Assembly (NCBI GenBank): GCA_036229005.1
Contig: JAZAMN010000002.1
Span: 1 to 64,000, forward strand
DNA from: Myxococcota bacterium
Lineage (GTDB): Bacteria > Myxococcota_A > UBA796 > CAJQPC01
Direction: 5' to 3'
Length of the DNA: 64,000 nucleotides
Under the pieces are notes generated by a model. The model was not told where the DNA came from. It did no database searches and worked only from the letters and a program-made list of their open reading frames with translations. The translations under genes were made by a program, and so were the position numbers. Below are positions 4 to 13,610 of the stretch, in pieces. Each line of letters starts with the position of its first letter. The first letter of the stretch is position 1.

Positions 4-1268
4 CTTACCAATCCCCACAAACCACTGCAGCCCTCAGCCTGTAGGCCTCACGACGTAGGGAGGCCGCCCCGAAATAGCGTCTCATGGGTGTTGCCAGGAC
101 CTCCCTTGCCAGGCGGGCCAGCGAGAGGACCCGGTGGCGTCGGACGCTGTTTGCCTGGAAGGAGCGCTGGAGCTGCATCCGCTCCGCTTTCAATCCCACC
201 AGCATGAGGACCAGGGCGGCCAGACAATCCAGGAGGAGGAGGTTTGCCAGCCGCAGGATGCCTTCCGAGCGACTGAAGCGCAGACTCCTGCCAAAGCGGG
301 GACTCTTGGTGTCGCGAAAGCTCTCCTCGATCTGCATGCGCAGTCCGTAGAGATTGAGAACCATCTTGGCGGGACAATCCAGCGAAGTCACAAGGACCCA
401 AGCCTGCTTTGCTGCCTTGCGGGCCTTCTTCACTGACGCATCACCATGCCGCTTGCTCTTCTTGCGAGACCGTCTTGGGCGGATCTTCGGTTTGGCTGCC
501 ACGACAACACGAGCACGATGTTGCCGAGCTTTGGTCACTTTGGTGATTCCCAGGTCCCGGTAGACCTCGCCGGCTCCTTCCGCCAACTCTCTGCCCTTGC
601 GCCATCTCCCCGAGACACCAACGTTGGCATACCCAGTGAGCCGGCCGACGTAGTCCAGCCCGAGTCGCTCGCAGGCCCGAAACCAGTCCGTGCGGAAGCC
701 TGCGTCGGTGACGACTACGACCTTTCGACCAGCAAGGAGGGCTCGGAGTCGAATCAGGAAGGCCTCTTCCACCGAAGGCCGGCCATGATCCCGAAGTGCG
801 TGGAGCTCAAACATCAGCGGAAGCGCGCGCCCATCAGCAGGGACCGCTGCGACGAGGGCGTAGTGAGCTTCGCCTACGCGAGTCCAATCCACCAAGACCC
901 GAACCGCCCCCCTGGCCGGGAGAATGGTCTTGGCGATGGCTCCGAAGAACAGGCTGTGATCATCAAACAAACGCTGATTGGAGACCAGTCGATCCGCCCG
1001 CTTGATGGCGTGCTTGGTGGCGCCTCGTCCGCCTCGCCCGATGCCAGTCACGGACAGGCGCGCCCCGGTCACCAGAGATTCCACAGCCCAACAGACCGCC
1101 GAGAAACGGTGCGCATGAACGACCGGCGTCGGAGCCAGCACAGCAGATAGACGGAAAGCAGTCTCGGACATGAGGCCTCTCTTGCGCATGTCGCGCGATG
1201 AGTTGTTTGCAGACAACCCACAGGTCACATGTCCGAGACTTCCTGGCTAGTTTGTGGGGATCACTCGC
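4..1268 (-). mobile_element. IS4-family insertion sequence (IS10-like)
   Basis: Transposase gene bounded by a 12 bp perfect inverted repeat (ATCCCCACAAAC at 11-22, GTTTGTGGGGAT at 1250-1261) resembling IS10 ends. The transposase stop codon lies inside the left end. Exact ends are inferred. Confidence 0.85.
5..1171 (-). CDS. IS4-family DDE transposase
   Basis: Motifs VLVDWT, VVTDAGF and Y-x2-R-x3-E-x2-F-RD-x-K (YGLRMQIEESFRDTKS). Start taken at MSETAF (ATG 1171). Confidence 0.92.
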   Translation of the reverse strand: MSETAFRLSAVLAPTPVVHAHRFSAVCWAVESLVTGARLSVTGIGRGGRGATKHAIKRADRLVSNQRLFDDHSLFFGAIAKTILPARGAVRVLVDWTRVGEAHYALVAAVPADGRALPLMFELHALRDHGRPSVEEAFLIRLRALLAGRKVVVVTDAGFRTDWFRACERLGLDYVGRLTGYANVGVSGRWRKGRELAEGAGEVYRDLGITKVTKARQHRARVVVAAKPKIRPRRSRKKSKRHGDASVKKARKAAKQAWVLVTSLDCPAKMVLNLYGLRMQIEESFRDTKSPRFGRSLRFSRSEGILRLANLLLLDCLAALVLMLVGLKAERMQLQRSFQANSVRRHRVLSLARLAREVLATPMRRYFGAASLRREAYRLRAAVVCGDW

Positions 1269-1276
1269 GGCTTTGC

Positions 1277-1370
1277 CCCCCAGAAGAATCAAGTGACGAC
1301 TGGGGGTGCCAGCCTGCGGCTGGCCTCGGGGGTACCCCCCGAAAGACTGCGTGGGGCCCATGGGCCCCAC
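1277..1370. repeat. Cluster of GC-rich hairpins/palindromes (REP-like)
   Basis: CCCCCAG..CTGGGGG (1277-1306), GCCAGCC-TGC-GGCTGGC (1308-1324), TCGGGGG-TAC-CCCCCGA (1326-1342), and the perfect 20 bp palindrome GTGGGGCCCATGGGCCCCAC (1351-1370). Confidence 0.65.
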
Positions 1371-1379
1371 CCAACGTCG

Positions 1380-2225
1380 TCACTCGCGGTCGTAGGGGTT
1401 GTCCCGGTCGTCACAGAGGTCGCCGTCGATGAAGGCGCCGGAGTTCTCGTAGTACTCGTCGAGCCCGTTCTTCACGCTGGTCTTGTACAGGTCCTCGCCC
1501 ACGCTGGAGGTGATGGACGACCACAGGCTGTAGGAGCGCAGCACGCGGTCGCTCCCCTCCTCGGGGATCCAGACCTGCAGCTCGAAGCGCTGGTCCCAGC
1601 TCGTGTCGTCCGAGTCGATGGCCGGAGCGACCTCGGGCATCCAACCCTTCTGGATGATGGCCTCGCGCCCGTCGCTCAGGGTCACCCAGGCGTACTCCTT
1701 CTGGATGTCCATCCAGGCGTCCCCACCGAAGGTGTCCAGGAACACCTCGTTGTCGCTGGCCACCCGCTCCTGCTCGCGGCTCGCGAAGGCGTCGGCGTCG
1801 CCGCCCGGGAAGGTCTGCGCGTGGTACTTGGTCGTGTCGGACGCGATGCAGACCTGGTTCTCGTCAACAATCAGCGGGATCTGCTGGTCCATCGTGTACT
1901 CGACCACCGCGGAGACCGTCACCGGCCACTGGGCGCTCTCCTCGGCCGTGTCCGGGTGCGTGGCCTTGCCCAGGCGCGCATAGGGCAGGGTCGGCGGGGT
2001 CACCGCGCGGTCGTCCACGTCGGTGTCGGGCTCCATCCCCTGCTCGGCCAGGTAGGCGGCCATCTGGTCCATGCCCGCGATCAGCGCGTCATCGCCGTCC
2101 TCGCCCTCGCCGTCAAAGTTCTCGTACAGGTACAGGGTCAGCTCACCGAACTCGGCGGGGGCTTCGACGGGGGCCTTGCAAGCGAACTGCGTGCCGGCCA
2201 GCAGCAAGGGAAGGGACAGGGTCAT
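1380..2225 (-). CDS. Hypothetical lipoprotein
   Basis: GGAG RBS, hydrophobic leader ending QFAC (lipobox-like), strongly biased codons, acidic mature region. Confidence 0.75.
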   Translation of the reverse strand: MTLSLPLLLAGTQFACKAPVEAPAEFGELTLYLYENFDGEGEDGDDALIAGMDQMAAYLAEQGMEPDTDVDDRAVTPPTLPYARLGKATHPDTAEESAQWPVTVSAVVEYTMDQQIPLIVDENQVCIASDTTKYHAQTFPGGDADAFASREQERVASDNEVFLDTFGGDAWMDIQKEYAWVTLSDGREAIIQKGWMPEVAPAIDSDDTSWDQRFELQVWIPEEGSDRVLRSYSLWSSITSSVGEDLYKTSVKNGLDEYYENSGAFIDGDLCDDRDNPYDRE

Positions 2226-2300
2226 GGGGTCTCCAGCGTGGGATTTCCAGCGAGATACCACGTACAACGCCCCCTTGAGAAGCGCCCCCGGCCAACTCCC

Positions 2301-3014
2301 CTACCCCGGCCGCTTGAAGACCCACAGCGGGCAGCCCGCCATCAGACCGGTGACCTCGTCGATAAGCACCAGCCCCGCGCCGCTCAGGCGCTGCTTGAGG
2401 GCCTCCCGGTCGTGGAGGTGCAGGGTCGCATTGTCCTGCACGTGCGCAACCTCTCCTCCACTCCACGCGACCAGGTAGTGGAAGTCCATCACCGCCCGCT
2501 GCCCTTCGCGCCGGGTCACGACCTGCCGACACACCTTGAGCCGGGGCGTGTCCACCACGACCATGTGCGGCTCGCCAGGCACAAAGTCCCGCGCGGAGAC
2601 CCAGGGCTCGACCAGGACCACGCCGCCGGGCTTGAGGGCCTCGAAAGCACACCGCGCGGCCGCGGACACCCCGTCCAGGTCCAGGTGGCAGAGGGCGCCG
2701 AAGAGGAAGAGCTGAACGTCTGCTGGGGACCGCGTGGCCCAACTCGCCAGATCCGCCCGCCACAGGTCCACCCCGGGCATCCACCCCCGAGCGAGGTCAA
2801 CCATCCGCTGATCCAGATCGAAGCCCGCGACCTGGTAGTGCGCCTGCAGCGGCCGCAGGTAGCTCCCGCTCCCACAGGCCCCCTCGATGAGGCGCCCGCT
2901 GGGGTGGCCGTGCCGGGAGAGCAGCGCGTGGATCCGGTCGGCGTCTCCGGCGTAGTCCTTGTGCTGATGGACCAGCTCGTAGAGCCAGGCGGGGTCGGTG
3001 GGATCCGGCCTCAT
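2301..3014 (-). CDS. Class I SAM-dependent methyltransferase (TylM1/DesVI-like)
   Basis: Motif I LIEGACGSG, GFDLD, LKPGGVVLVEPW, N-terminal KDYAGDAD. Its ATG overlaps the upstream stop (ATGA at 3011-3014). Confidence 0.85.
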   Translation of the reverse strand: MRPDPTDPAWLYELVHQHKDYAGDADRIHALLSRHGHPSGRLIEGACGSGSYLRPLQAHYQVAGFDLDQRMVDLARGWMPGVDLWRADLASWATRSPADVQLFLFGALCHLDLDGVSAAARCAFEALKPGGVVLVEPWVSARDFVPGEPHMVVVDTPRLKVCRQVVTRREGQRAVMDFHYLVAWSGGEVAHVQDNATLHLHDREALKQRLSGAGLVLIDEVTGLMAGCPLWVFKRPG

Positions 3015-3448
3015 GCCAGGCGGATGACGTGATCGAAGGCGATGGTCAGGGTCTCGACCGCGACCTCGGAGCTGCCGGCGTTCATGCCCGGCAGGGACCA
3101 CTTGATGGGCCAGCTCTCCATGAGCACCATCGAGCGCAGGACGCTGTGGTCGCTGCGCAGGAAGTCGATGCGGACCGCGCGGTGGTCGAAGTGGCCGTTC
3201 ACGATGCGCTCCCGCCACTGGTAGAGCTCGTCGATGCCCTCGTAGTAGCGCTCCATCTCCAGGTCGTTCCAGTCCTGGCGGCCCGACATCTTGCGCACGG
3301 CGCGATCGCCGCCGTGCATGAAGGTCACCACCTCCTCTTCGGAGGTCAGCGCGCCGACCTTGTAGAAGGACGCGATGGGCGCGGTGATGCCCTCCACGTG
3401 CACGCGGAAGTGGAAGTTGCCGATGTAGTTGTTGGTCGGGTTTCCCAC
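3011..3448 (-). CDS. Phage tail tube protein (T4 gp19-like / eCIS Afp1-Afp5 family)
   Basis: 145 aa with family pattern NFHFRVHVEG..ASF..V..L, RKMSGR, LEMERY, LYQWR, WPIKWSLPGMNAGSSEVAVETLTIAF. GGAGG RBS 5 nt before GTG 3448. Confidence 0.88.
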   Translation of the reverse strand: MGNPTNNYIGNFHFRVHVEGITAPIASFYKVGALTSEEEVVTFMHGGDRAVRKMSGRQDWNDLEMERYYEGIDELYQWRERIVNGHFDHRAVRIDFLRSDHSVLRSMVLMESWPIKWSLPGMNAGSSEVAVETLTIAFDHVIRLA

Positions 3449-3503
3449 GTCCACCTCCGAGGCCCCCAGGGTACAACGGGGCCCCGCCTCCCGCAGGAGC
3501 CGC

Positions 3504-4169
3504 TCAGCCCTGGGCCAGCACCTTGAGCTGCTCGGGCTCACGCAGAATGATGCCCTCGCGCTGGGTGCAGACCAGCCCCTGCTCCTGCCAGCGGGTCATC
3601 AGGCGGATCACGGTCTCGGAGCGGCACCAGGCCATCTCGGAGAGCTCCACTCGGGTCAGGCGCAGGGGGATGAACACGCCGCGGGCGTCGGGGAGGCCGA
3701 TGCTGTTGCCGATGGTCAGGAGGCGGGTGGCCAGGCGCTGCTCGACCGAGAGGGTCGCGAGATCCTCCAGGTCCTTGGCGAAGGTCTGGTTCCGGCGCAC
3801 CTGTGTGCCCAGCAGCAGGTCCATCACCCGGGGCTGCTTGGAGGCGAGCTCGCGCATGCGGGCGCCGTCGACGAACACGCCACGGATGGAGGACAGGGCC
3901 ATGGCGGAGGCGCCGCGGCGGGCGCCCTTGCTGGCCCCCTCGATGCCGATCAGCTCGCCGCGGTGGGCGAGGTCCAGGGTGACGCGGCGCTCACCGTGCT
4001 GCCGGAAGAGCTTCACGCTACCGGAGCCGAGCAGGAAGACACCGTCGGCCAGCTCGCCTTCGGTCCACAGGAGCTGCTTGCGCTTGAAGCGAACCGGGAC
4101 CCCGAAGCCCTGGATGCGCTGGAGGGCCTCGTCGCTGGAGCTCGGGGAGGTGAAGGGGTTCAAGGTCAT
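3504..4169 (-). CDS. Crp/Fnr family transcriptional regulator
   Basis: cNMP-binding-like domain (GSVKL, GELIG) and HTH region EQRLA..LL, LTRVELSEMAWCRSETVIRLMTRWQEQGLV. Confidence 0.92.
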   Translation of the reverse strand: MTLNPFTSPSSSDEALQRIQGFGVPVRFKRKQLLWTEGELADGVFLLGSGSVKLFRQHGERRVTLDLAHRGELIGIEGASKGARRGASAMALSSIRGVFVDGARMRELASKQPRVMDLLLGTQVRRNQTFAKDLEDLATLSVEQRLATRLLTIGNSIGLPDARGVFIPLRLTRVELSEMAWCRSETVIRLMTRWQEQGLVCTQREGIILREPEQLKVLAQG

Positions 4170-4190: not shown

Positions 4191-4820
4191 TCAAGGGATG
4201 GAAAGGGGCGCGGAGGCGAGCTCCGGGGCGCGCATGGCCAGGCCGCCGAGGCCAAGCAGCAGCACCCCTGCAGCGACCGCGAGGCGGGCCTTTGGGAACT
4301 TCTGGAGCAGCAGCCGCAGGCTGCCGGCGGCCACGGCGAGCATCGGGACGGTCCCGGCGCCGAAGGCGAGCATCGAGATGGCGCCGCCCGCGGGCGAGCC
4401 AGCGGTCACGGCCATGGACAGGGCGGCGTAGACCAGCCCGCAGGGCAGCAGCCCCGTGACCATGCCGAAGGCGAAGCGGCCGCCCAGGCCCTGCCGGCGG
4501 GCCCAGAAGGCACCCCAGCGGGCAACGAAGGGCAGCTTGGGGCCCAGGGCGGGGACCAGATCCGCCAGCCGGGCCGCGAACCAGATCAGCAGAACCGCCG
4601 CGAGGGCGTGCCCCAACCAGGGCCAGGGCAACGCCCAGCCCACGGAGCCGGCGAGGGCCCCCAAGGTGGCGTAGGTGCTGAGCCGACCCAGGTGCCAGGC
4701 GAGCTGCCGGGCGCCGCCGCCGCTGGACGCAGCGAAGCCACCACACATGCCGACGCAGTGCGGTGAGCCGGCCAGCCCGGCGAGGGCCGAAGCCCCCAGG
4801 ATGGGGATCAGGCCCTCCAC
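4191..4820 (-). CDS. DsbD_2/TauE-SafE-like membrane protein associated with cbb3 oxidase clusters
   Basis: SPHCVGMCGG, HLGRLSTY, GLLPCGLVY, MLAFGAGT motifs and multiple TM segments. Confidence 0.85.
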   Translation of the reverse strand: MEGLIPILGASALAGLAGSPHCVGMCGGFAASSGGGARQLAWHLGRLSTYATLGALAGSVGWALPWPWLGHALAAVLLIWFAARLADLVPALGPKLPFVARWGAFWARRQGLGGRFAFGMVTGLLPCGLVYAALSMAVTAGSPAGGAISMLAFGAGTVPMLAVAAGSLRLLLQKFPKARLAVAAGVLLLGLGGLAMRAPELASAPLSIP

Positions 4821-5062
4821 CGCTCGAACTCCAGCGCAAGCAGTCGAGGCGGTCTGTCGGAGTGGAGGACCTCCACCTCGACCTCGGGGAGGCCGACTGT
4901 CTCCAGCCGGGAGCTCAGCGCCTTGGCGACCAATGAGGTGTCCGCGCCCTGAGGCACCGACACCGTGATGGCCGCGAGCCGGCCGGTGCGTTGCCGGGCC
5001 AGAGCCCAGGCCCGGCCAACGACGTCATCCACCATGCTCTCGAGTTCAAAGGACACGGACAC
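4808..5062 (-). CDS. Small hypothetical protein (84 aa)
   Basis: AAGGAG RBS before GTG, overlaps the next gene's start. Only a faint resemblance to HypA. Confidence 0.55.
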   Translation of the reverse strand: MSVSFELESMVDDVVGRAWALARQRTGRLAAITVSVPQGADTSLVAKALSSRLETVGLPEVEVEVLHSDRPPRLLALEFERWRA

Positions 5063-5112
5063 TCCTTCGGGTTCTCCACCAGCAAGGTCCGTGCCAGCCT
5101 GTCCTCGCCGAC

Positions 5113-5126
5113 ATGACGCAGGTCAG
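5113..5126. promoter_or_regulatory. Putative Crp/Fnr-type binding site
   Basis: aTGAC-GCAG-GTCAg palindrome with FNR-box spacing (consensus TTGAT-N4-ATCAA), between a Crp/Fnr-containing gene run and ccoN. Confidence 0.5.
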
Positions 5127-5176
5127 TGCCTGGGGTCGGGCCAGAAGGCACAAGGGCGGTGTGCCAAATCCCCCAT

Positions 5177-5191
5177 GCGACACATCGTCGC
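5177..5191. promoter_or_regulatory. Candidate enhancer (bEBP upstream activating sequence)
   Basis: Perfect inverted repeat GCGAC-N5-GTCGC about 60 bp upstream of the sigma-54 -24 element. Confidence 0.35.
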
Positions 5192-5247
5192 TCCCCCTAC
5201 CCGCTCAGAGAGCCCCGCTCGCTGGGTCAATCCGCCCCCGGACTGAG

Positions 5248-5264
5248 CTGGCACGGAACTTGCT
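5248..5264 (+). promoter_or_regulatory. Sigma-54 (RpoN) -24/-12 promoter of the cco operon
   Basis: CTGGCACGGAACTTGCT matches TGGCAC-N5-TTGCW exactly, 23 nt before the ccoN start. Confidence 0.85.
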
Positions 5265-5287
5265 CAAGCGGGGTTCGGAGGTAGCCC

Positions 5288-6733
5288 GTGTCACCTGAGA
5301 CTCCACAAACCAACTACGACGACGCAATCACCAAGAAGTTCGTGATCGCAGCCGTGGTCTGGGGTGCGGTCGGAATGCTTGTGGGCGTGTTGATCGCCCT
5401 GCAGCTGGCCTGGTGGCCAGCCAACGCAAACCTGCCCTTCCTGACCTTCGGTCGCCTGCGTCCCCTTCACACCAACGCAGTCATCTTTGCCTTCACCGGC
5501 AACTTCATCTTCGCCGCGATGTACTACAGCATGCAGCGCCTCTTGAAGACGCGCATGTTCAACGATGTCCTATCCCGCATCCACTTCTGGGGTTGGCAGG
5601 CCATCATCGTCGCGGCGGCCCTCACTCTGCCCGCAGGCCTGACCCAGGCCAAGGAGTACGCGGAGCTGATCTGGCCCATCGACCTCGCCATCGCGGTCGT
5701 CTGGGTGGTCATGGCCGTGAACTTCTTCGGGACCGTGGCCATCCGCAAGGTCAAGCACCTGTACGTGGCCATCTGGTTCTACATGTCGATGGTCATCACC
5801 ATCGCGGTGCTGCACATCTTCAACAACCTGGCAGTGCCCGCGACGCTCACCCGCTCCTACCCCGTGTACTCCGGCATCACCGATGCCCTGGTGCAGTGGT
5901 GGTACGGCCACAACGCGGTGGGCTTCCTGCTGACCACGCCCATCCTGGGCATCATGTACTACTTCGTGCCCAAGACCTCCGGTCGGCCGGTGTACAGCTA
6001 CCGGCTGTCCATCATCCACTTCTGGGGTCTGGTGTTCCTGTACATCTGGGCCGGCCCCCACCACCTGCTCTACTCCAGCCTCCCCGACTGGGCGCAGACC
6101 GCGGGCATGGTGTTCTCCCTGATGCTCCTGGCTCCCTCCTGGGGTGGCATGCTCAACGGCCTGCTGACCCTGCGCGGCGCCTGGGACAAGCTGCGGACGG
6201 ACCCCCTGCTCAAGTTCTGGGTCGTGGCCATCACCTTCTACGGTATGTCCACCTTCGAGGGCCCCATGATGAGCATCCGTGCCGTCAACGCCCTGTCCCA
6301 CTACACGGACTGGACCATCGGCCACGTGCACTCCGGTGCCCTGGGCTGGGTCGGTATGGCTGCGTTCGCCAGCTTCTACTACATGGTCCCCAAGCTCTGG
6401 GGGACCAAGCTCCACTCCGTGAAGCTCGCCACGCTGCACTTCTGGGTCGCCACCATCGGCATCATCCTGTACGTGCTCGCCATGTGGACCGCTGGCATCA
6501 CCCAGGGAATGATGTGGCGCCAGATCTCGCCGGAAGACGGCTCGCTGGTCCACCCGAACTTCCTGGACACGGTCCTGCAGTTGATGCCCCTGTACTGGAT
6601 TCGCCTGGTGGGCGGTCTGATGTACCTCAGCGGCGTCTTCATCATGGCCTTCAACCTGTGGAAGACCGCAAGCGGTGCCCCTGCTGAGCAGGACGCGTCC
6701 GCCGCTGTCTCCGACCCCACCCCCGCCAAGTAA
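5288..6733 (+). CDS. ccoN: cbb3-type cytochrome c oxidase subunit I
   Basis: GRLRPLHTNAVIFAF, QWWYGHNAVGF, WAGPHHL, WTIGHVHSGALGW. GGAGG RBS. Confidence 0.98.
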   Translation: MSPETPQTNYDDAITKKFVIAAVVWGAVGMLVGVLIALQLAWWPANANLPFLTFGRLRPLHTNAVIFAFTGNFIFAAMYYSMQRLLKTRMFNDVLSRIHFWGWQAIIVAAALTLPAGLTQAKEYAELIWPIDLAIAVVWVVMAVNFFGTVAIRKVKHLYVAIWFYMSMVITIAVLHIFNNLAVPATLTRSYPVYSGITDALVQWWYGHNAVGFLLTTPILGIMYYFVPKTSGRPVYSYRLSIIHFWGLVFLYIWAGPHHLLYSSLPDWAQTAGMVFSLMLLAPSWGGMLNGLLTLRGAWDKLRTDPLLKFWVVAITFYGMSTFEGPMMSIRAVNALSHYTDWTIGHVHSGALGWVGMAAFASFYYMVPKLWGTKLHSVKLATLHFWVATIGIILYVLAMWTAGITQGMMWRQISPEDGSLVHPNFLDTVLQLMPLYWIRLVGGLMYLSGVFIMAFNLWKTASGAPAEQDASAAVSDPTPAK

Positions 6734-6744
6734 GGAGGCCCCAA

Positions 6745-7482
6745 ATGGCAGACAGCTTCCACAGGCGTGTCCTCGAGTCCAACGGCGCCCGCCTGGCCGT
6801 CCTCACCACGGTGATGATCTCCATCGGCGCCCTGGTCGAGATCGTCCCCATGTACTCCGAGGCCCTCGGTCCGGAGCCCCTGGAGGGCGTCGAGCCCCTC
6901 ACCCCCCTGGAGCTCGCCGGTCGGGACATCTACATCCGGGAGGGCTGCTACAACTGCCACTCCCAGATGGTCCGTCCCTTCCGCGACGAGACCCTGCGCT
7001 ACGGTCCCTGGACCCGCGCTGGTGAGCTGGTCTACGAGCGCCCCTTCCAGATGGGCTCCCGCCGCATCGGCCCCGACCTCCAGCGGGTCGGCGGCAAGTG
7101 GGGCGACGACTGGCACTACAACCACATGAAGAACCCGCGCGACACCAGCCCGGGGTCCATCATGCCCAACTACCCCTGGCTCTTTGACCGCAAGGTGGAC
7201 ACGGAGGACGTTCAGGCCTCCCTCACCGCGCTGCAGAAGCTCGGGACCCCCTACTCCGACGAGGACATCGCCAACGCTGGCCAGTCCATGCAGGAGCAGG
7301 GTCAGGGCCACGTGGACTTCCTGGCCGGCAAGGGCATCACCGCCGAGCCTGACGACGAGATCATCGCCATGATCGCCTACCTCCAGCACCTGGGTGTGGA
7401 CGGTCGGGCCGCGATCGAGAAGCAGGCGGCTGCCGCGAGCGACGAGAGCCCCGAGCGCTCGCTGGCCGCGGCGGAGGAGTAG
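6745..7482 (+). CDS. ccoO: cbb3-type cytochrome c oxidase subunit II
   Basis: GRDIYIREGCYNCHSQMVRP, GSRRIGPDL, SIMPNYPWL. Confidence 0.97.
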   Translation: MADSFHRRVLESNGARLAVLTTVMISIGALVEIVPMYSEALGPEPLEGVEPLTPLELAGRDIYIREGCYNCHSQMVRPFRDETLRYGPWTRAGELVYERPFQMGSRRIGPDLQRVGGKWGDDWHYNHMKNPRDTSPGSIMPNYPWLFDRKVDTEDVQASLTALQKLGTPYSDEDIANAGQSMQEQGQGHVDFLAGKGITAEPDDEIIAMIAYLQHLGVDGRAAIEKQAAAASDESPERSLAAAEE

Positions 7483-7485
7483 GCC

Positions 7486-7665
7486 ATGCGACTGAACTTC
7501 GCCTCCTACCTGGCAAGCGTGCCCGAGGCCTGGATCATGGGCTTCACCACGATCTTCTTCCTCGCGGTCTTTGTCACCTGGACCCTCTGGGCCTGGTGGC
7601 CGGCCAACAAGGAGCGGCTGGATGAGGCCGCTCACCTCCCCTTCGAAGATGGAGACCTGTCATGA
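7486..7665 (+). CDS. ccoQ: cbb3-type cytochrome c oxidase subunit CcoQ (59 aa, not in ORF track)
   Basis: Hand translation gives MRLNFASYLASVPEAWIMGFTTIFFLAVFVTWTLWAWWPANKERLDEAAHLPFEDGDLS: one TM plus the EAAxLPF tail, lying between ccoO and ccoP with an ATGA overlap. Confidence 0.88.
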   Translation: MRLNFASYLASVPEAWIMGFTTIFFLAVFVTWTLWAWWPANKERLDEAAHLPFEDGDLS

Positions 7666-8156
7666 GCAACGAGCAGGACCAGATCCTCGGCCATGGCGAG
7701 GAGTGTGATGGGATCGAGGAGTACGACAACGACCTCCCCGGTTGGTGGGTCGGACTCTTCATCGTCTCCATCATCTTCGCCATCGGCTACACCGCGAACT
7801 ACCACTTCATCTCGCAGACCTCCCAGACGGCCCAGTACCAGGCCCAGATGGATGAGGCTGCGGCCCTGTGGCCCGCTCCGGAGGGGCCCATCGCGGTCAC
7901 CGACGAGATGGTCGCAGAGGGCAAGGAGATCTACATGACCAACTGCATTGGTTGTCACGGTCCCGAGCTCAAGGGTGGCATCGGTCCCGACCTGACCGAC
8001 GCCGAGTGGATCCACGGTGGAAGCCTGGCCGAGATCGAGCACACCGTCACCGAGGGTGTGCCTGAGAAGGGCATGGTCGCCTGGGGCTCCATCCTGGGCC
8101 CCGTGAAGATCCAGAAGGTCACGGCCTTCGTGCACTCCTCGGGCGGTGGGCAGTAG
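7662..8156 (+). CDS. ccoP: cbb3-type cytochrome c oxidase subunit III (monoheme)
   Basis: DGIEEYDNDLPGWW N-terminus, single CIGCH, GPDLTDAEWIHGG, GMVAW. Confidence 0.93.
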   Translation: MSNEQDQILGHGEECDGIEEYDNDLPGWWVGLFIVSIIFAIGYTANYHFISQTSQTAQYQAQMDEAAALWPAPEGPIAVTDEMVAEGKEIYMTNCIGCHGPELKGGIGPDLTDAEWIHGGSLAEIEHTVTEGVPEKGMVAWGSILGPVKIQKVTAFVHSSGGGQ

Positions 8157-8157
8157 C

Positions 8158-8337
8158 ATGTCTGCCCCCTCCCCCAGCCAGGACAAGCCCCTCACGCCCA
8201 ACGGAAAGCGTTGGGTGGCCGGGATTGTCCTGGGCCTGATGCTCGTCGTGGGTGTGAACCTCTACATGATGAAGGTGGCCATGGACAGCCACCCTGATCT
8301 CGTCGAGTCCTACGAGAACGAGGAGAACCGGAAGTGA
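8158..8337 (+). CDS. Short FixH/CcoH-like membrane peptide
   Basis: W..GIV....LVVGVN..M...A....PDLV..Y resembles the FixH N-terminus. Lies between ccoP and ccoI and overlaps the ccoI start. Confidence 0.65.
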   Translation: MSAPSPSQDKPLTPNGKRWVAGIVLGLMLVVGVNLYMMKVAMDSHPDLVESYENEENRK

Positions 8338-10610
8338 GCGAAGAGGGCCCCATCTCCCAGCAGGCGCACTGTGCCCACTGTGGACTCCCCGTCGAAGGGA
8401 GCCCGGATGAGGTCCTCTTCTGCTGCTCCGGGTGCGAGCTGGCCGCCTCCATCGTGGAGGAGGCCGGCTTGCAGCGTTGGTACCAGGAGCGCGAGAGCGA
8501 AGCCCCCCGTCCCGACACCCGCCCCCTCCCTGCCCTGTCCACCGAGATCGGTGCCGACGGGACCGCCGCTCTGGACTTCCGCGTCCAGGGCCTGCGCTGC
8601 AGCTCCTGCGTCTGGCTCGTCGAGCGGGTGCTGGAGGGCTCCGAAGGCGTCGAGCACGCCCGCGTCTCCTACTCCACAGGGCGCGCCGAGCTCCGCTTCG
8701 ACCCCGAGAAGACTTCCCTGGACACCCTGCTGACCCGCGTCCAGCAGCTCGGCTACCAGCCCGCTGCCCTGGCCGCCGCGCCCCCCAAGGATGAGGGGCT
8801 GCTGATCCGCCTGGGTGTGTCCGCCTTCCTGGCCGCGAACATCATGCTGATGGCGGCCTCCCTCTACCTGGGCTGGCTGTCCGAGATCGAAGACAGCGTC
8901 GCCACCCTCTTCCGCTGGACCTCCCTGGTCCTGAGCGCCCCCATCGCGATGTGGGCCGCCGAGCCCTTCCACAAGGGCGCCTGGCGCGCCGCCCGCGAAG
9001 GCCACCTGCACATGGACCTGCCCATCTCGCTGGCGGTCAACGTGCTCTTCGGCCACGCCCTCTGGGCCACCGTCCAGGGCCAGGAGGGCTACCTGGACAG
9101 CCTGGCGATGCTCGTCACCCTGCTGCTCGCCGGCCGGGTGCTGGACCAGCGGGGGCGTCGCGCTGCCCAGGAGGCCGCCTCTGCGCTGGCTGCCACGGCC
9201 CCGTCGAGGGCCCGGATCCTGGTGGACGGACAGCCCGTCACCACCCCCTCCGATCAGCTCCAGCCGGGCATGACGCTGCTCCTGTCCACCGGCGAGGAAC
9301 TGGCGGCCGACTGCGTGGTCCTGGACGGGAGCGGCATGGTCCGCACCGCCCAGCTCACCGGCGAGTCCGAGCCCGTCCCCACCGGCCCCGGCGAGCTCCT
9401 GCTGGCCGGCTCCACCCTGGTCCAGGGCAACCTGGAGCTGCGCATCGAGCAGGCCGGCGACCAGACCCTGCTGGCCCGCATGGCCGAGGGCCTGCTGGAG
9501 GCCAACGACCGCCCCCAGGCGCCCGACATCCTGGACCGCATCGCCCCCTGGTTCACCGGCGCCACCCTCAGCGTGGCCGCCCTCTCCGCAATCGGCTGGT
9601 ACCTGGTCGGCGGCGAGATCATGCCCCCGGTCATCGCCGTGCTGGTGGTCGCCTGCCCCTGCGCGCTGTCCCTGGCCCGCCCCCTCTCCGCCGCGGTGGG
9701 ACTGGGCGCGGCAGCGGACCGGGGTTTCCTCGCTCGCAGCGGGGATGCCCTGCTGGGGCTGGAGCAGGTGGATGTCGTGGTGATGGACAAGACCGGCACG
9801 CTCACCCACGGCCTCCCCTCCGTGACGGAAGCCGACGACAAGACCCTGCGGCTGGCGGCCGGCGTGGAGCGCGGCTCCATCCACCCCATCGCCCGCGCAA
9901 TCGTGCAGGAGTGCAGCGCCCGGAGCATCCCCATCCCCCTGGGCACCGACCTGCAGGAGCTCCCCGGCCAGGGGATGCTGGGACGGGTGGACGGGGTGCA
10001 GATCCTGGTCCAGGCCGCCGGCCCCGGCAAGGTCATGGTCATCGCTGATGGCGCTCTCGTCGGGGAGATCGCCCTCCGGGACAGCCTGCGGGAGGACGCC
10101 ACCGAGACCCTCGCCGCCATCCAGGCCACCGGCCGGCGCGTCGAGATGCTCACCGGTGACCACGCCGACGTCGCCGCCCGCATCGCCGAGCAGGCCGGCA
10201 TCGACGTGGTCCACGCCAAGGCCACGCCCGAGTCCAAGGCCGCCTACATCGCCGAGCTCCAGGAGCAGGGGCATTGCGTGCTCTTCATTGGCGATGGCAT
10301 CAACGACGGCCCGGCCCTGGCCCGCGCGGACGTCGCGGTCGCCATGTCCACCGGCGCAGGCTCCAGCGTGCTGGTCTCCGACGCCGTGGTCGCCTGGCCC
10401 TCCCTCAAGCCCCTGCTGGCCGGGTTCAGAGCCTCCAAGGCCGCCCACAAGGCCACCCGCAGCAACCTCATCCGCTCCGGCACCTACAATGTCCTCGCTG
10501 TGGCAGCCGCTGCTCTGGGGTTCGTGAACCCCCTGGTCGCAGCGGTGCTCATGCCCCTGTCCAGCGGCATGGTCCTGCTCGGAGCCCTCAGCATCCGGAG
10601 GAAGCTATGA
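8334..10610 (+). CDS. ccoI: Copper-translocating P1B-type ATPase (CcoI/FixI)
   Basis: CAHCG..FCCSGC, HMA CSSC, LTGES, ACPCAL, DKTGTLT, HP, GDGIND, YN and MPLSS motifs. Confidence 0.95.
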   Translation: MSEEGPISQQAHCAHCGLPVEGSPDEVLFCCSGCELAASIVEEAGLQRWYQERESEAPRPDTRPLPALSTEIGADGTAALDFRVQGLRCSSCVWLVERVLEGSEGVEHARVSYSTGRAELRFDPEKTSLDTLLTRVQQLGYQPAALAAAPPKDEGLLIRLGVSAFLAANIMLMAASLYLGWLSEIEDSVATLFRWTSLVLSAPIAMWAAEPFHKGAWRAAREGHLHMDLPISLAVNVLFGHALWATVQGQEGYLDSLAMLVTLLLAGRVLDQRGRRAAQEAASALAATAPSRARILVDGQPVTTPSDQLQPGMTLLLSTGEELAADCVVLDGSGMVRTAQLTGESEPVPTGPGELLLAGSTLVQGNLELRIEQAGDQTLLARMAEGLLEANDRPQAPDILDRIAPWFTGATLSVAALSAIGWYLVGGEIMPPVIAVLVVACPCALSLARPLSAAVGLGAAADRGFLARSGDALLGLEQVDVVVMDKTGTLTHGLPSVTEADDKTLRLAAGVERGSIHPIARAIVQECSARSIPIPLGTDLQELPGQGMLGRVDGVQILVQAAGPGKVMVIADGALVGEIALRDSLREDATETLAAIQATGRRVEMLTGDHADVAARIAEQAGIDVVHAKATPESKAAYIAELQEQGHCVLFIGDGINDGPALARADVAVAMSTGAGSSVLVSDAVVAWPSLKPLLAGFRASKAAHKATRSNLIRSGTYNVLAVAAAALGFVNPLVAAVLMPLSSGMVLLGALSIRRKL

Positions 10611-10741
10611 ACATCCTCATCCTGCTCGTCCCCGTCGCCCTGCTCCTGGGTGGTACCTTCGCCGTCCTGTTTGTGGTGTCCGCCCAGAGAGGTCAGTTCG
10701 ATGACCTGGACGACGCCCCCGAGCGCATGCTCCGCGACTGA
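10607..10741 (+). CDS. ccoS: cbb3 oxidase assembly protein CcoS
   Basis: MNILILLVPVALLLG...GQFDDLDDAPERMLRD, with an ATGA overlap with the ccoI stop. Confidence 0.93.
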   Translation: MNILILLVPVALLLGGTFAVLFVVSAQRGQFDDLDDAPERMLRD

Positions 10742-10768
10742 ATCCCCTGCCCCCCGGGTCCCCTGCAC

Positions 10769-12127
<1,359 letters not shown>

Positions 12128-12137
12128 CAGCCCCCTG

Positions 12138-13610
12138 CTAGGGCGCCGCCCGCATCGTGATCTTGAAGCAGGCGCCGTCGGGGCAGCTCTCCAGCTCCAG
12201 GGTGCCGCCCATGGCCTCGATGTACTTGCGGCTGATGGCCAGCCCCAGCCCCGTGCCCCGGGTCTTGGTGGTCACGAAGGGCTCGAACAGGGTGCTCAGC
12301 ACCTCGGGGTCCACGCCGGGCCCATCGTCCCGGACCCGCACCACAGGGCCCGGACCGACGATCAGCCAGACCCTGCCCTCGCCGGCGACCGCGTCTCTTG
12401 CGTTCTGGAGCAGGTTCACCAGGACCTGGGTGGTGTACTGCGGATCCGCGAACACCCGGGTCCCCTGCCCCCCCTCCTGCTCAAGCTCCGCGTCCACGCC
12501 GGACTGGGTGATGCCCTCCTTCACCAGCTCGCAGAGGTCCACCGCCTCGGTCTTGACCTGCGCGGGGCGGGCGTATCCCAAGAGGTCGCTGACCAAGCGG
12601 TCCAAGCGGAAGACCTGCTCCCCCACCTTCTCCAGCACCTTGCGCCGGCGGTCGTCTTGGGCCAGGGACCCGCCGATGACCTGAAGGGTGGCCGAGATGG
12701 CGGCCAGGGGGTTCCGGATCTCGTGGGCGATGTTGGCGGCCAGGGTGCCGATCCGCGCGAGGCCCTCGGCGTGCTGGGCCCGGACCTCGGCCTGGACGAC
12801 GTCGGTGAGCTCCTCCAGGTGGATGAGCATGTGGGCCAGCTCGTGCTGCAGCGGCACCAGGGTGATGCGGAAGTGGCGCTCGTGGCCCTCGTGCAGGAGC
12901 AGCGTGCGCGGCATGGTGACGACCCGCCCGGTCATGGAGGCCCGAGCGAGCGCGGCGTCCAGATCGGCGGCCTCCCAGAGCGCGGGCGGCAGAAAGGACT
13001 CGACGGACGCTCCGACCTTGGCCTGGGGGTTGAGCAGGCGCGTTCCGGGCGCGGTCGCGGAGTTCACCCGGCCCTTCTCGTCCAGGACGAGCACAGTGAC
13101 GGGCATGTTGCGGATGATGAGGTCCTGCAGGGTGCGCAGCTCCTCCCACTCGTGCTCGGCGTGGTAGGTCGAGGTCATCGCGGCCAGATCCAGGTCCCCG
13201 ACCTTTGAGAGGCTGCGGCAGACCTCCCGAGCCTCCGCCGGCTCCAGCGCGTCAAAGACGATGTCGACCATCCCTTCCCTGACCTGGTTCATGGCCGTGA
13301 ACATGTAGCGCTCGGGCAGACCGACGCGGACATGCACCTTCCCGATGCGCTGGCGGCGCTCGAAGTAGGCCTCGTCCCAGGGGCCGTTGAGCAGCTCCTG
13401 CATCCAGACCTTGAGGGTCTCCTTGAGGCGGTTGACCTGGGCCAGGTCCTGGAAGACGCTGCGGGCGTCCTCATGTCCAAGGATCACCTGGTAGAACTGG
13501 TCGACCAGCGCCTGCTTGTGGGGCTCGACCAGGGGCCAGGCCCGGCGCAGGTTGGCCTCGTCCTGGGGGCTCCACCCCACGTAGCGCAGCATGTCTTGCC
13601 AATGGCTCAT
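12138..13610 (-). CDS. Globin-coupled (protoglobin) sensor histidine kinase with PAS-like domain
   Basis: N-terminus YVGW..D..L, FY, WMQELLNGPWDEAYFERRQRIGKVHVRVGLP (sensor globin); H-box AHEIRNPL; N-box NLLQNA; G boxes DDGPG, PFVTTK, GTGLGL. GGAG RBS before ATG 13610. Confidence 0.93.
   Translation of the reverse strand: MSHWQDMLRYVGWSPQDEANLRRAWPLVEPHKQALVDQFYQVILGHEDARSVFQDLAQVNRLKETLKVWMQELLNGPWDEAYFERRQRIGKVHVRVGLPERYMFTAMNQVREGMVDIVFDALEPAEAREVCRSLSKVGDLDLAAMTSTYHAEHEWEELRTLQDLIIRNMPVTVLVLDEKGRVNSATAPGTRLLNPQAKVGASVESFLPPALWEAADLDAALARASMTGRVVTMPRTLLLHEGHERHFRITLVPLQHELAHMLIHLEELTDVVQAEVRAQHAEGLARIGTLAANIAHEIRNPLAAISATLQVIGGSLAQDDRRRKVLEKVGEQVFRLDRLVSDLLGYARPAQVKTEAVDLCELVKEGITQSGVDAELEQEGGQGTRVFADPQYTTQVLVNLLQNARDAVAGEGRVWLIVGPGPVVRVRDDGPGVDPEVLSTLFEPFVTTKTRGTGLGLAISRKYIEAMGGTLELESCPDGACFKITMRAAP

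Follow-up and report, generated by a model that had tools for sequence, protein, structure and literature searches.

Released eCIS particles are assembled from tube and sheath in a ratio of about 1:1, and therefore co-transcription of their genes is the expected state. The question raised by the locus described here is what an inner-tube gene does when it stands away from any sheath gene. The gene lies in the window, i.e. the whole 64,000-nucleotide stretch that was analysed, which opens contig C2 in a Myxococcota genome of 6.4 Mb (74 contigs, 94% complete).

The detached tube gene

The CIS inner-tube gene occupies positions 3011..3448 on the minus strand and encodes a protein of 145 aa; the start codon is GTG, preceded at a distance of 5 nt by a GGAGG ribosome-binding site (3454..3458, minus strand). 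The protein matches PF06841 with 81.4 bits (cut-off 28.2, E 7e-23) over positions 2-132 of the 134 in the profile, and this is the sole family matched at E up to 0.01. The score for TIGR02241 is a near miss of the curated cut-off (60.6 vs 62.4 bits), and those for NCBIfam CIS1_fam (29.5 vs 220 bits) and CIS5_fam (41.4 vs 260 bits) lie below theirs. A preliminary description of this DNA had proposed an intact tube ORF with the above ribosome-binding site and host-like codon use, all of which was confirmed (codon use is host-average, GC3 0.97); of the two profiles that it had named for recognition of the protein, PF06841 was matched and TIGR02241 was not. On a score of ribosomal-protein-like codon bias, which is confounded by foreign codon use, the gene falls at the 26th percentile, while the main tubes encoded on contigs C24 and C50 of the same genome are at the 99th and 95th. 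No hydrophobic segment is present in the protein.

The AlphaFold model, obtained with a 20-row alignment (pLDDT 78.6), has strands at 36-43 and 52-60 and a helix at 74-83, corresponding to a tube fold with the long stacking beta-hairpin. The top Foldseek matches of the model are eCIS tubes (E 1e-10 to 9e-7, TM 0.66-0.77), 7aeb_Y being among the best (E 9.9e-11, TM 0.77); Hcp structures rank far below. The protein would assemble into stacked hexameric rings. Family, length and predicted fold are those of the solved Afp1/Pvc1/Cis1 tubes (AlgoCIS 7adz_1a and 7aeb_Y, Anabaena 7b5h, PVC 6j0b, Streptomyces 9gts), although identity to them is only 19-24%; differently from these, the gene is found away from any sheath gene and is a second copy that exists beside an intact cluster copy.

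Relationship to the injection systems of the same genome

Searching the window by tblastn with the genome's own injection-system proteins returns the tube gene only, in agreement with the earlier claim that no other injection gene occurs in the 64 kb. The gene is an orphan only locally, since the cognate machines are encoded elsewhere in the genome: five PF06841 and three sheath matches are found, within two full clusters located on C24 and C50. The C50 cluster comprises a sheath, two tubes, CIS_tube, gp25 and gp5-OB, identified by Pfam, with hub and baseplate proteins identified by similarity; the C24 cluster contains Pvc16, two sheaths, two tubes, GPD, gp25, J and AAA genes, and a gp5-OB gene was not recognised within it. 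A gp19 gene that appears orphan need not be domesticated, and the whole genome is to be checked first. The whole-genome search for sheath and baseplate loci that had been suggested for this DNA thus succeeded, and the designation as an orphan holds for the window and fails for the genome. A further pattern search of genome contigs for related loci gave 50 pattern matches, none of which was confirmed.

At the 3' ends of both clusters (C50 1149-8979 and C24 119010-119921) there are predicted membrane proteins belonging to no Pfam family, which are candidates for a membrane anchor. On C2 itself, 8 kb past the window end, a detached spike cassette (72385-75390) carries a gene resembling PAAR, which with 24.6 bits does not reach the PF05488 cut-off of 27, together with another methyltransferase, unrelated to the first, and two gp5-OB genes; its order is the same in G001 and G015 and partly so in G003, and it probably supplies the C24 cluster.

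The detached tube is 50% identical to the C50 main tube (C50:18084-18518) and 34% to the C24 main tube. The C50 and detached tubes are equal in length, 145 aa, with no indel, they have the same charge (20 D+E, 15 K+R), and the long beta-hairpin (36-60) is retained. Among 41 columns conserved in 38 in-cluster tubes, 32 are kept and 9 are lost, to be read against a range of 26-41 for the in-cluster tubes themselves and 34 for detached tubes that are sole copies. In the tree, a long stem (0.71-0.78 changes per site) underlies the orphan tubes of the four species of the genus, and their sister group varies because of which long rows are included: with the long-branch rows the genus orphan joins a cluster-edge copy from G034 and the orphan of G051 (97/87), and without the three long rows it groups with the C50 tube of its own genus as sister (SH-aLRT 89). 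A clade of the orphan and the genus C50 tube is not rejected by the AU test (p 0.378). Duplication in the ancestor of the genus would be the simplest account of the detached copy, although it is not proven.

Conservation and selection in the genus

An orthologue of the detached tube is present in all three congeners, with 71-74% identity, and no match at E 1e-30 was found in the 18 other genomes of the family. In the four species of the genus the frame is open, the genes for tube, methyltransferase and lipoprotein follow one another in identical order, and the tube-methyltransferase junction measures at most 5 nt; a C50-type sheath is present in all four carriers. The dN/dS values of the detached tube (NG86, with dS compressed by the high GC3) are 0.09-0.14 among the congeners and 0.24-0.32 in comparisons with this genome, and those of the cluster tube 0.03-0.12; dN of the former is about three times that of the latter (0.211 vs 0.073). 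The terminal branch of this genome's copy is long (0.33-0.35 vs 0.02-0.10) and its dN/dS is the highest; the neighbouring genes are also more diverged in this genome, at 52-64% identity compared with 71-74% for the tube. Judged from these substitution patterns, the detached tube is under purifying selection in the whole genus and is no relic. The preliminary description would have regarded the gene as a relic if its adjacency to the methyltransferase gene were unique to this genome and the tube under relaxed selection; the adjacency is shared by the genus, and the dN/dS range is 0.09-0.32.

Exit of the main tube from the operon in the order

A census was made of 154 genomes of the order, which are kin and in many cases fragmented; the C24-type and C50-type systems were labelled type A and type B for this analysis. 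The type A main sheath is found in 132/154 genomes and the type A main tube in 128/154. Tube and sheath are adjacent in 75 genomes, by a hand count of listed coordinates, and the other 57 type A genomes, all inspected, comprise 52 with a tube-less operon, four with a contig edge and one split after the sheath. In the 52 tube-less operons the next cluster gene follows 64-257 bp after the sheath; in the genome under study the distance from the sheath to the next type A gene is 602 bp, with the tube between them. Therefore 52 of the 127 resolvable type A genomes, distributed over five of seven families, have no main tube in the operon, a count to be read with the kinship of the 52 genomes in mind, as family f7 may represent one event. 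A type A tube with 75-88% identity occurs elsewhere in 43/52, and no match was obtained with the query used in the remaining 9/52. When 22 of these detached type A loci were sampled, 21 had no other injection gene in the stretch inspected, and by eye the sites fall into about ten different neighbourhoods. In G067, assembled in two contigs, the type A tube is present as two tandem copies on the contig other than that of the operon. Examples of the tube-less operons are loci L177-L216 and L237-L250, and tandem or multiple detached tube copies occur in G067, G123, G024 and G112.

Type B sheaths are present in 40/154 genomes. In G040 (99% complete) and G063, belonging to one genus, the type B sheath abuts the next gene, at 185 and 184 bp respectively; this is a conserved 116-aa gene with no Pfam family, and two and three near-identical tube copies (144-148/148 residues) are located on other contigs. 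Further stand-alone type B tubes are found in G029 and G051; those of G047 and G151 lie near contig ends and were not counted as such. A different arrangement is shown by nine type B clusters (L125, L137-L140, L142, L146, L149 and L067), in which a tandem of two distinct main-tube paralogues separates the sheath from the gene that follows. Finally, in G151 a 601-aa ORF (L073:2415-4220) combines an N-terminal tube domain with a long C-terminal extension, with no recognised injection genes nearby.

A literature search outside subscription journals returned no description of a main tube gene that alone leaves its operon, and nothing on detached tube genes is contained in the parts covered of PMC10553843 and PMC10598620. 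The nearest case is that of split eCIS loci, reported in two blocks in 13 genomes, including the Amoebophilus T6SS-iv (Chen et al. 2019, PMC6899500, parts covered): there too one machine is encoded at separate places, with afp1/5 at a distance from afp11, whereas here a single main-tube gene leaves an otherwise contiguous operon, or duplicates away from it, to about ten sites in one order. In type VI secretion, orphan hcp islands are common, and according to the portion covered of PMC13098142 such hcp/vgrG/PAAR islands place tube and spike genes off the core and are thought to serve a distant machine; differently from these, the detached tube is gp19-type rather than Hcp-type and no effector-immunity pair was recognised next to it. 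In the PLTS/eCIS of uncultured marine Myxococcota, gp19 is described as "often linked" to a sheath gene, and the parts covered of that report (PMC11937823) hold no description of detached tube genes. The single gene in the window is in itself a modest finding; the main result is that tube and sheath have become uncoupled repeatedly within the order, which points to selection for a tube supply uncoupled from the sheath supply.

A probable tube subunit acting in trans

Where the only main tube is detached from an otherwise intact operon, the tube would have to act in trans if the machine is built; this makes the trans role the default reading for the gene in the window too. Accordingly worded for this genome, the detached gene would be a diverged duplicate of the C50 main tube, whose product joins the C50 machine in trans as an accessory subunit, an explanation that we consider reasonably probable. 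Its rings would stack with those of the C50 tube inside the C50 sheath, or replace them, and the separate locus would allow the amount and the type of tube to be controlled independently of the sheath and baseplate genes, which are present in one copy. That both copies are kept and one has diverged suggests a second tube type, mixed with the first or replacing it. On the other side, the sole-copy detached tubes of other genomes stay near the cluster type, which counts against a trans role for the diverged copy; in addition, the long stem and the threefold dN beside an intact cluster tube also fit a changed job, and the nine lost family-conserved columns and the ordinary codon bias weigh on the same side. 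The proposal, already advanced from the window, that the tube subunit serves an eCIS whose genes lie elsewhere is strengthened by the C50 paralogue and by the detached tubes that are sole copies in many relatives. The detached copy would offer a natural diverged tube for the study of mixed tubes and cargo choice.

A bolder view, which appears rather unlikely as it stands, is that the injection systems of the order are cell-anchored and reloadable, not particles released for a single shot, with the tube spent at each firing and the sheath reused, as in type VI secretion. Spent tubes would then explain the duplication of tube genes, their release from the operon and their very high expression, and the detached gene would encode an exchangeable second needle with a separate range of cargo. 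This agrees with the 52 tube-less operons, the tandem and dispersed tube copies beside single-copy main sheaths, the predicted membrane proteins encoded at the 3' end of each cluster and the AAA ATPase gene beside C24, as well as with the report, in the parts covered of PMC11937823, that gp19 was the most highly expressed gene of two Myxococcota MAGs. Taken together, the order-wide pattern and the gp19 transcripts would be in keeping with a need for more tube than sheath. The exit of the tube offers a way to ask from genomes whether the machines of these likely predators are released or reloaded.

The low-oxygen block and the possibility of domestication

The accessory-subunit reading has to be weighed against domestication, in which the tube took up, after duplication, a role outside the machine, as a free polymer or as a HilE-like binder of a regulator, e.g. 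the Crp/Fnr protein encoded next to it. The gene for this protein (3504..4169, minus strand; PF00027 and PF13545) is the last of a low-oxygen block and is separated from the tube gene by 55 bp, as previously noted; it is the upstream neighbour of the tube in three of the four species. The block (4191-13592) includes cbb3 oxidase genes, a P-type ATPase-like gene, a sigma-54 activator and a protoglobin-PAS kinase. Two perfect sigma-54 boxes are present, one at 5082..5096 on the minus strand, facing orf84-DsbD2-Crp-tube, and a second at 5249-5263 on the plus strand, facing ccoN (consensus TGGCAC-N5-TTGC); both also occur in G001, and the genome contains 37 perfect boxes in 6.4 Mb. With its divergent sigma-54 boxes the block resembles the NmpRSTU regulon of Myxococcus xanthus as described in the parts covered of PMC11841059, and inspection of the divergent promoter by eye did not reveal the exact NmpR site given there (GCGCA-N5-TGCGC).

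The suggestion that the tube could be oxygen-regulated is not borne out by conservation. The block is absent as a whole from G003 (95% complete), where neither this Crp (at E 1e-25) nor ccoN finds a match; its cassette is intact, and its tube gene abuts a homologue of a gene from the far side of the block; the cassette is therefore independent of the Crp/cbb3 block. Of the synteny formerly proposed, the pairing of tube and methyltransferase stands in the whole genus and its extension to Crp/Fnr does so in three species only. The oxygen link of the tube gene is weak, and the block is a positional neighbour. In this genome read-through from the block into the tube gene would be possible, because no terminator-like site lies between them; the one such site found is inside the methyltransferase gene and is at chance level, and a sigma-70 promoter scan gave no promoter-like sites. 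TAnnnT-like hexamers were noticed, by eye only, before the tube and lipoprotein genes of the congeners. Three metatranscriptome contig sets were matched only by chance pieces of 18-36 bases and are uninformative on expression.

Domestication would account for the rapid change along the stem and the purifying selection that came after it, and a precedent exists in HilE of Salmonella, an Hcp homologue turned regulator, which likewise has a tube fold, is encoded outside its machine and is close to regulation (PMC10696396, parts covered). However, HilE is monomeric and its assembly loop is shortened, whereas the detached tube keeps the full loop, with no deletion or gap compared with the in-cluster tubes; moreover, G003 retains the tube without this Crp and every carrier has a C50-type sheath. 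Domestication is thus improbable, and the reading as a domesticated polymer, formerly offered as one of two alternatives, is not needed to explain the detached tube.

The methyltransferase and lipoprotein genes

The gene downstream of the tube, at 2301..3014 on the minus strand, encodes a class I SAM methyltransferase of TylM1/DesVI type with 237 aa (PF13649; TylM1 E 2.7e-23). It overlaps the tube gene through an ATGA at 3011-3014 and is followed by the lipoprotein gene, an arrangement that agrees with the first reading of the sequence, and it is probably co-transcribed with the tube. The similarity to TylM1 extends over residues 9-217, so that both the SAM motif and the C-terminal beta domain fall within the match. 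The enzyme matches the N,N-dimethyltransferases TylM1/DesVI (3pfg, 3bxo) in sequence; unlike the case of these enzymes, no nucleotide-sugar pathway genes were recognised among its neighbours.

A doubtful alternative to the accessory-subunit reading is that tube and methyltransferase form one module, in which the enzyme is a cargo of this tube variant or methylates a machine part or a small-molecule payload. The tight junction in all four species speaks for it, as does a second association: homologues occur in 37/154 genomes of the order, and in five genomes of family f6 a TylM1-like homologue is placed just 5' of the type B sheath. An unrelated methyltransferase is also found between PAAR and gp5 in this genome, G001 and G015, and beside gp5 in G003, and a C50-type sheath is present in 18/37 genomes with a homologue vs 22/117 of the others. 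Against it, a single CIS-linked clade uniting the f6 enzymes with those of the genus is rejected in a tree of 26 homologues (AU p 0.0175); counted by genus the co-occurrence becomes 12/21 vs 14/47 (p 0.057), confounded by kinship and genome size; no injection gene was found near any of the 17 other homologue loci checked; and the TylM1 alignment begins at residue 9, which leaves no leader for loading. Given the missing N-terminal leader and the homologues, which mostly lie away from injection genes, the idea of a cargo module receives little support. The methyltransferase is most likely a passenger, although a link to the injection machine is possible. In the f6 loci (L069, L070, L072, L122 and L123) the methyltransferase occupies the position that gp5-OB has in other type B clusters.

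The last gene of the cassette (1380..2225, minus strand) codes for a lipoprotein-like protein of 281 aa from a Myxococcota family, with no Pfam match and a predicted START/polyketide-cyclase-like fold (ESM Atlas, TM 0.51-0.56 to START/cyclase clusters); its Atlas clusters also point to Myxococcota as the taxon. Family members are present in 42/154 genomes of the order, and at the 16 loci checked outside the genus none has the tube or methyltransferase beside it; the gene is probably a bystander and a positional neighbour. Neither the methyltransferase nor the START-like lipoprotein, as neighbours of the tube, matches a toxin family.

The left flank

The contig starts with an IS4-family transposase gene (5..1189, minus strand; NF033591 233.5 bits, cut-off 152), and the first 141 bases of this end also begin contigs C70 and C67. 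The genes of C70, a two-component locus, follow the lipoprotein in all three congeners, so that in this genome the IS separates the cassette from that locus; therefore no cluster is hidden to the left of the IS, and the possibility, once considered, that the tube gene is the edge of an eCIS cluster is removed. That the gene is a decaying leftover of a duplication or of an IS-broken cluster is highly improbable and already largely refuted: the adjoining IS and the long, high-dN/dS terminal branch of this genome favour it, but the frame is open in all four species with dN/dS well below 1, the neighbouring genes have diverged more than the tube, and the flank of the IS is the two-component locus. 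Between the IS and the lipoprotein gene lies a sequence of about 110 bases (window 1268-1378), found twice near the start of C70 with 94% identity, which may be a repeated extragenic element into which the IS is targeted.
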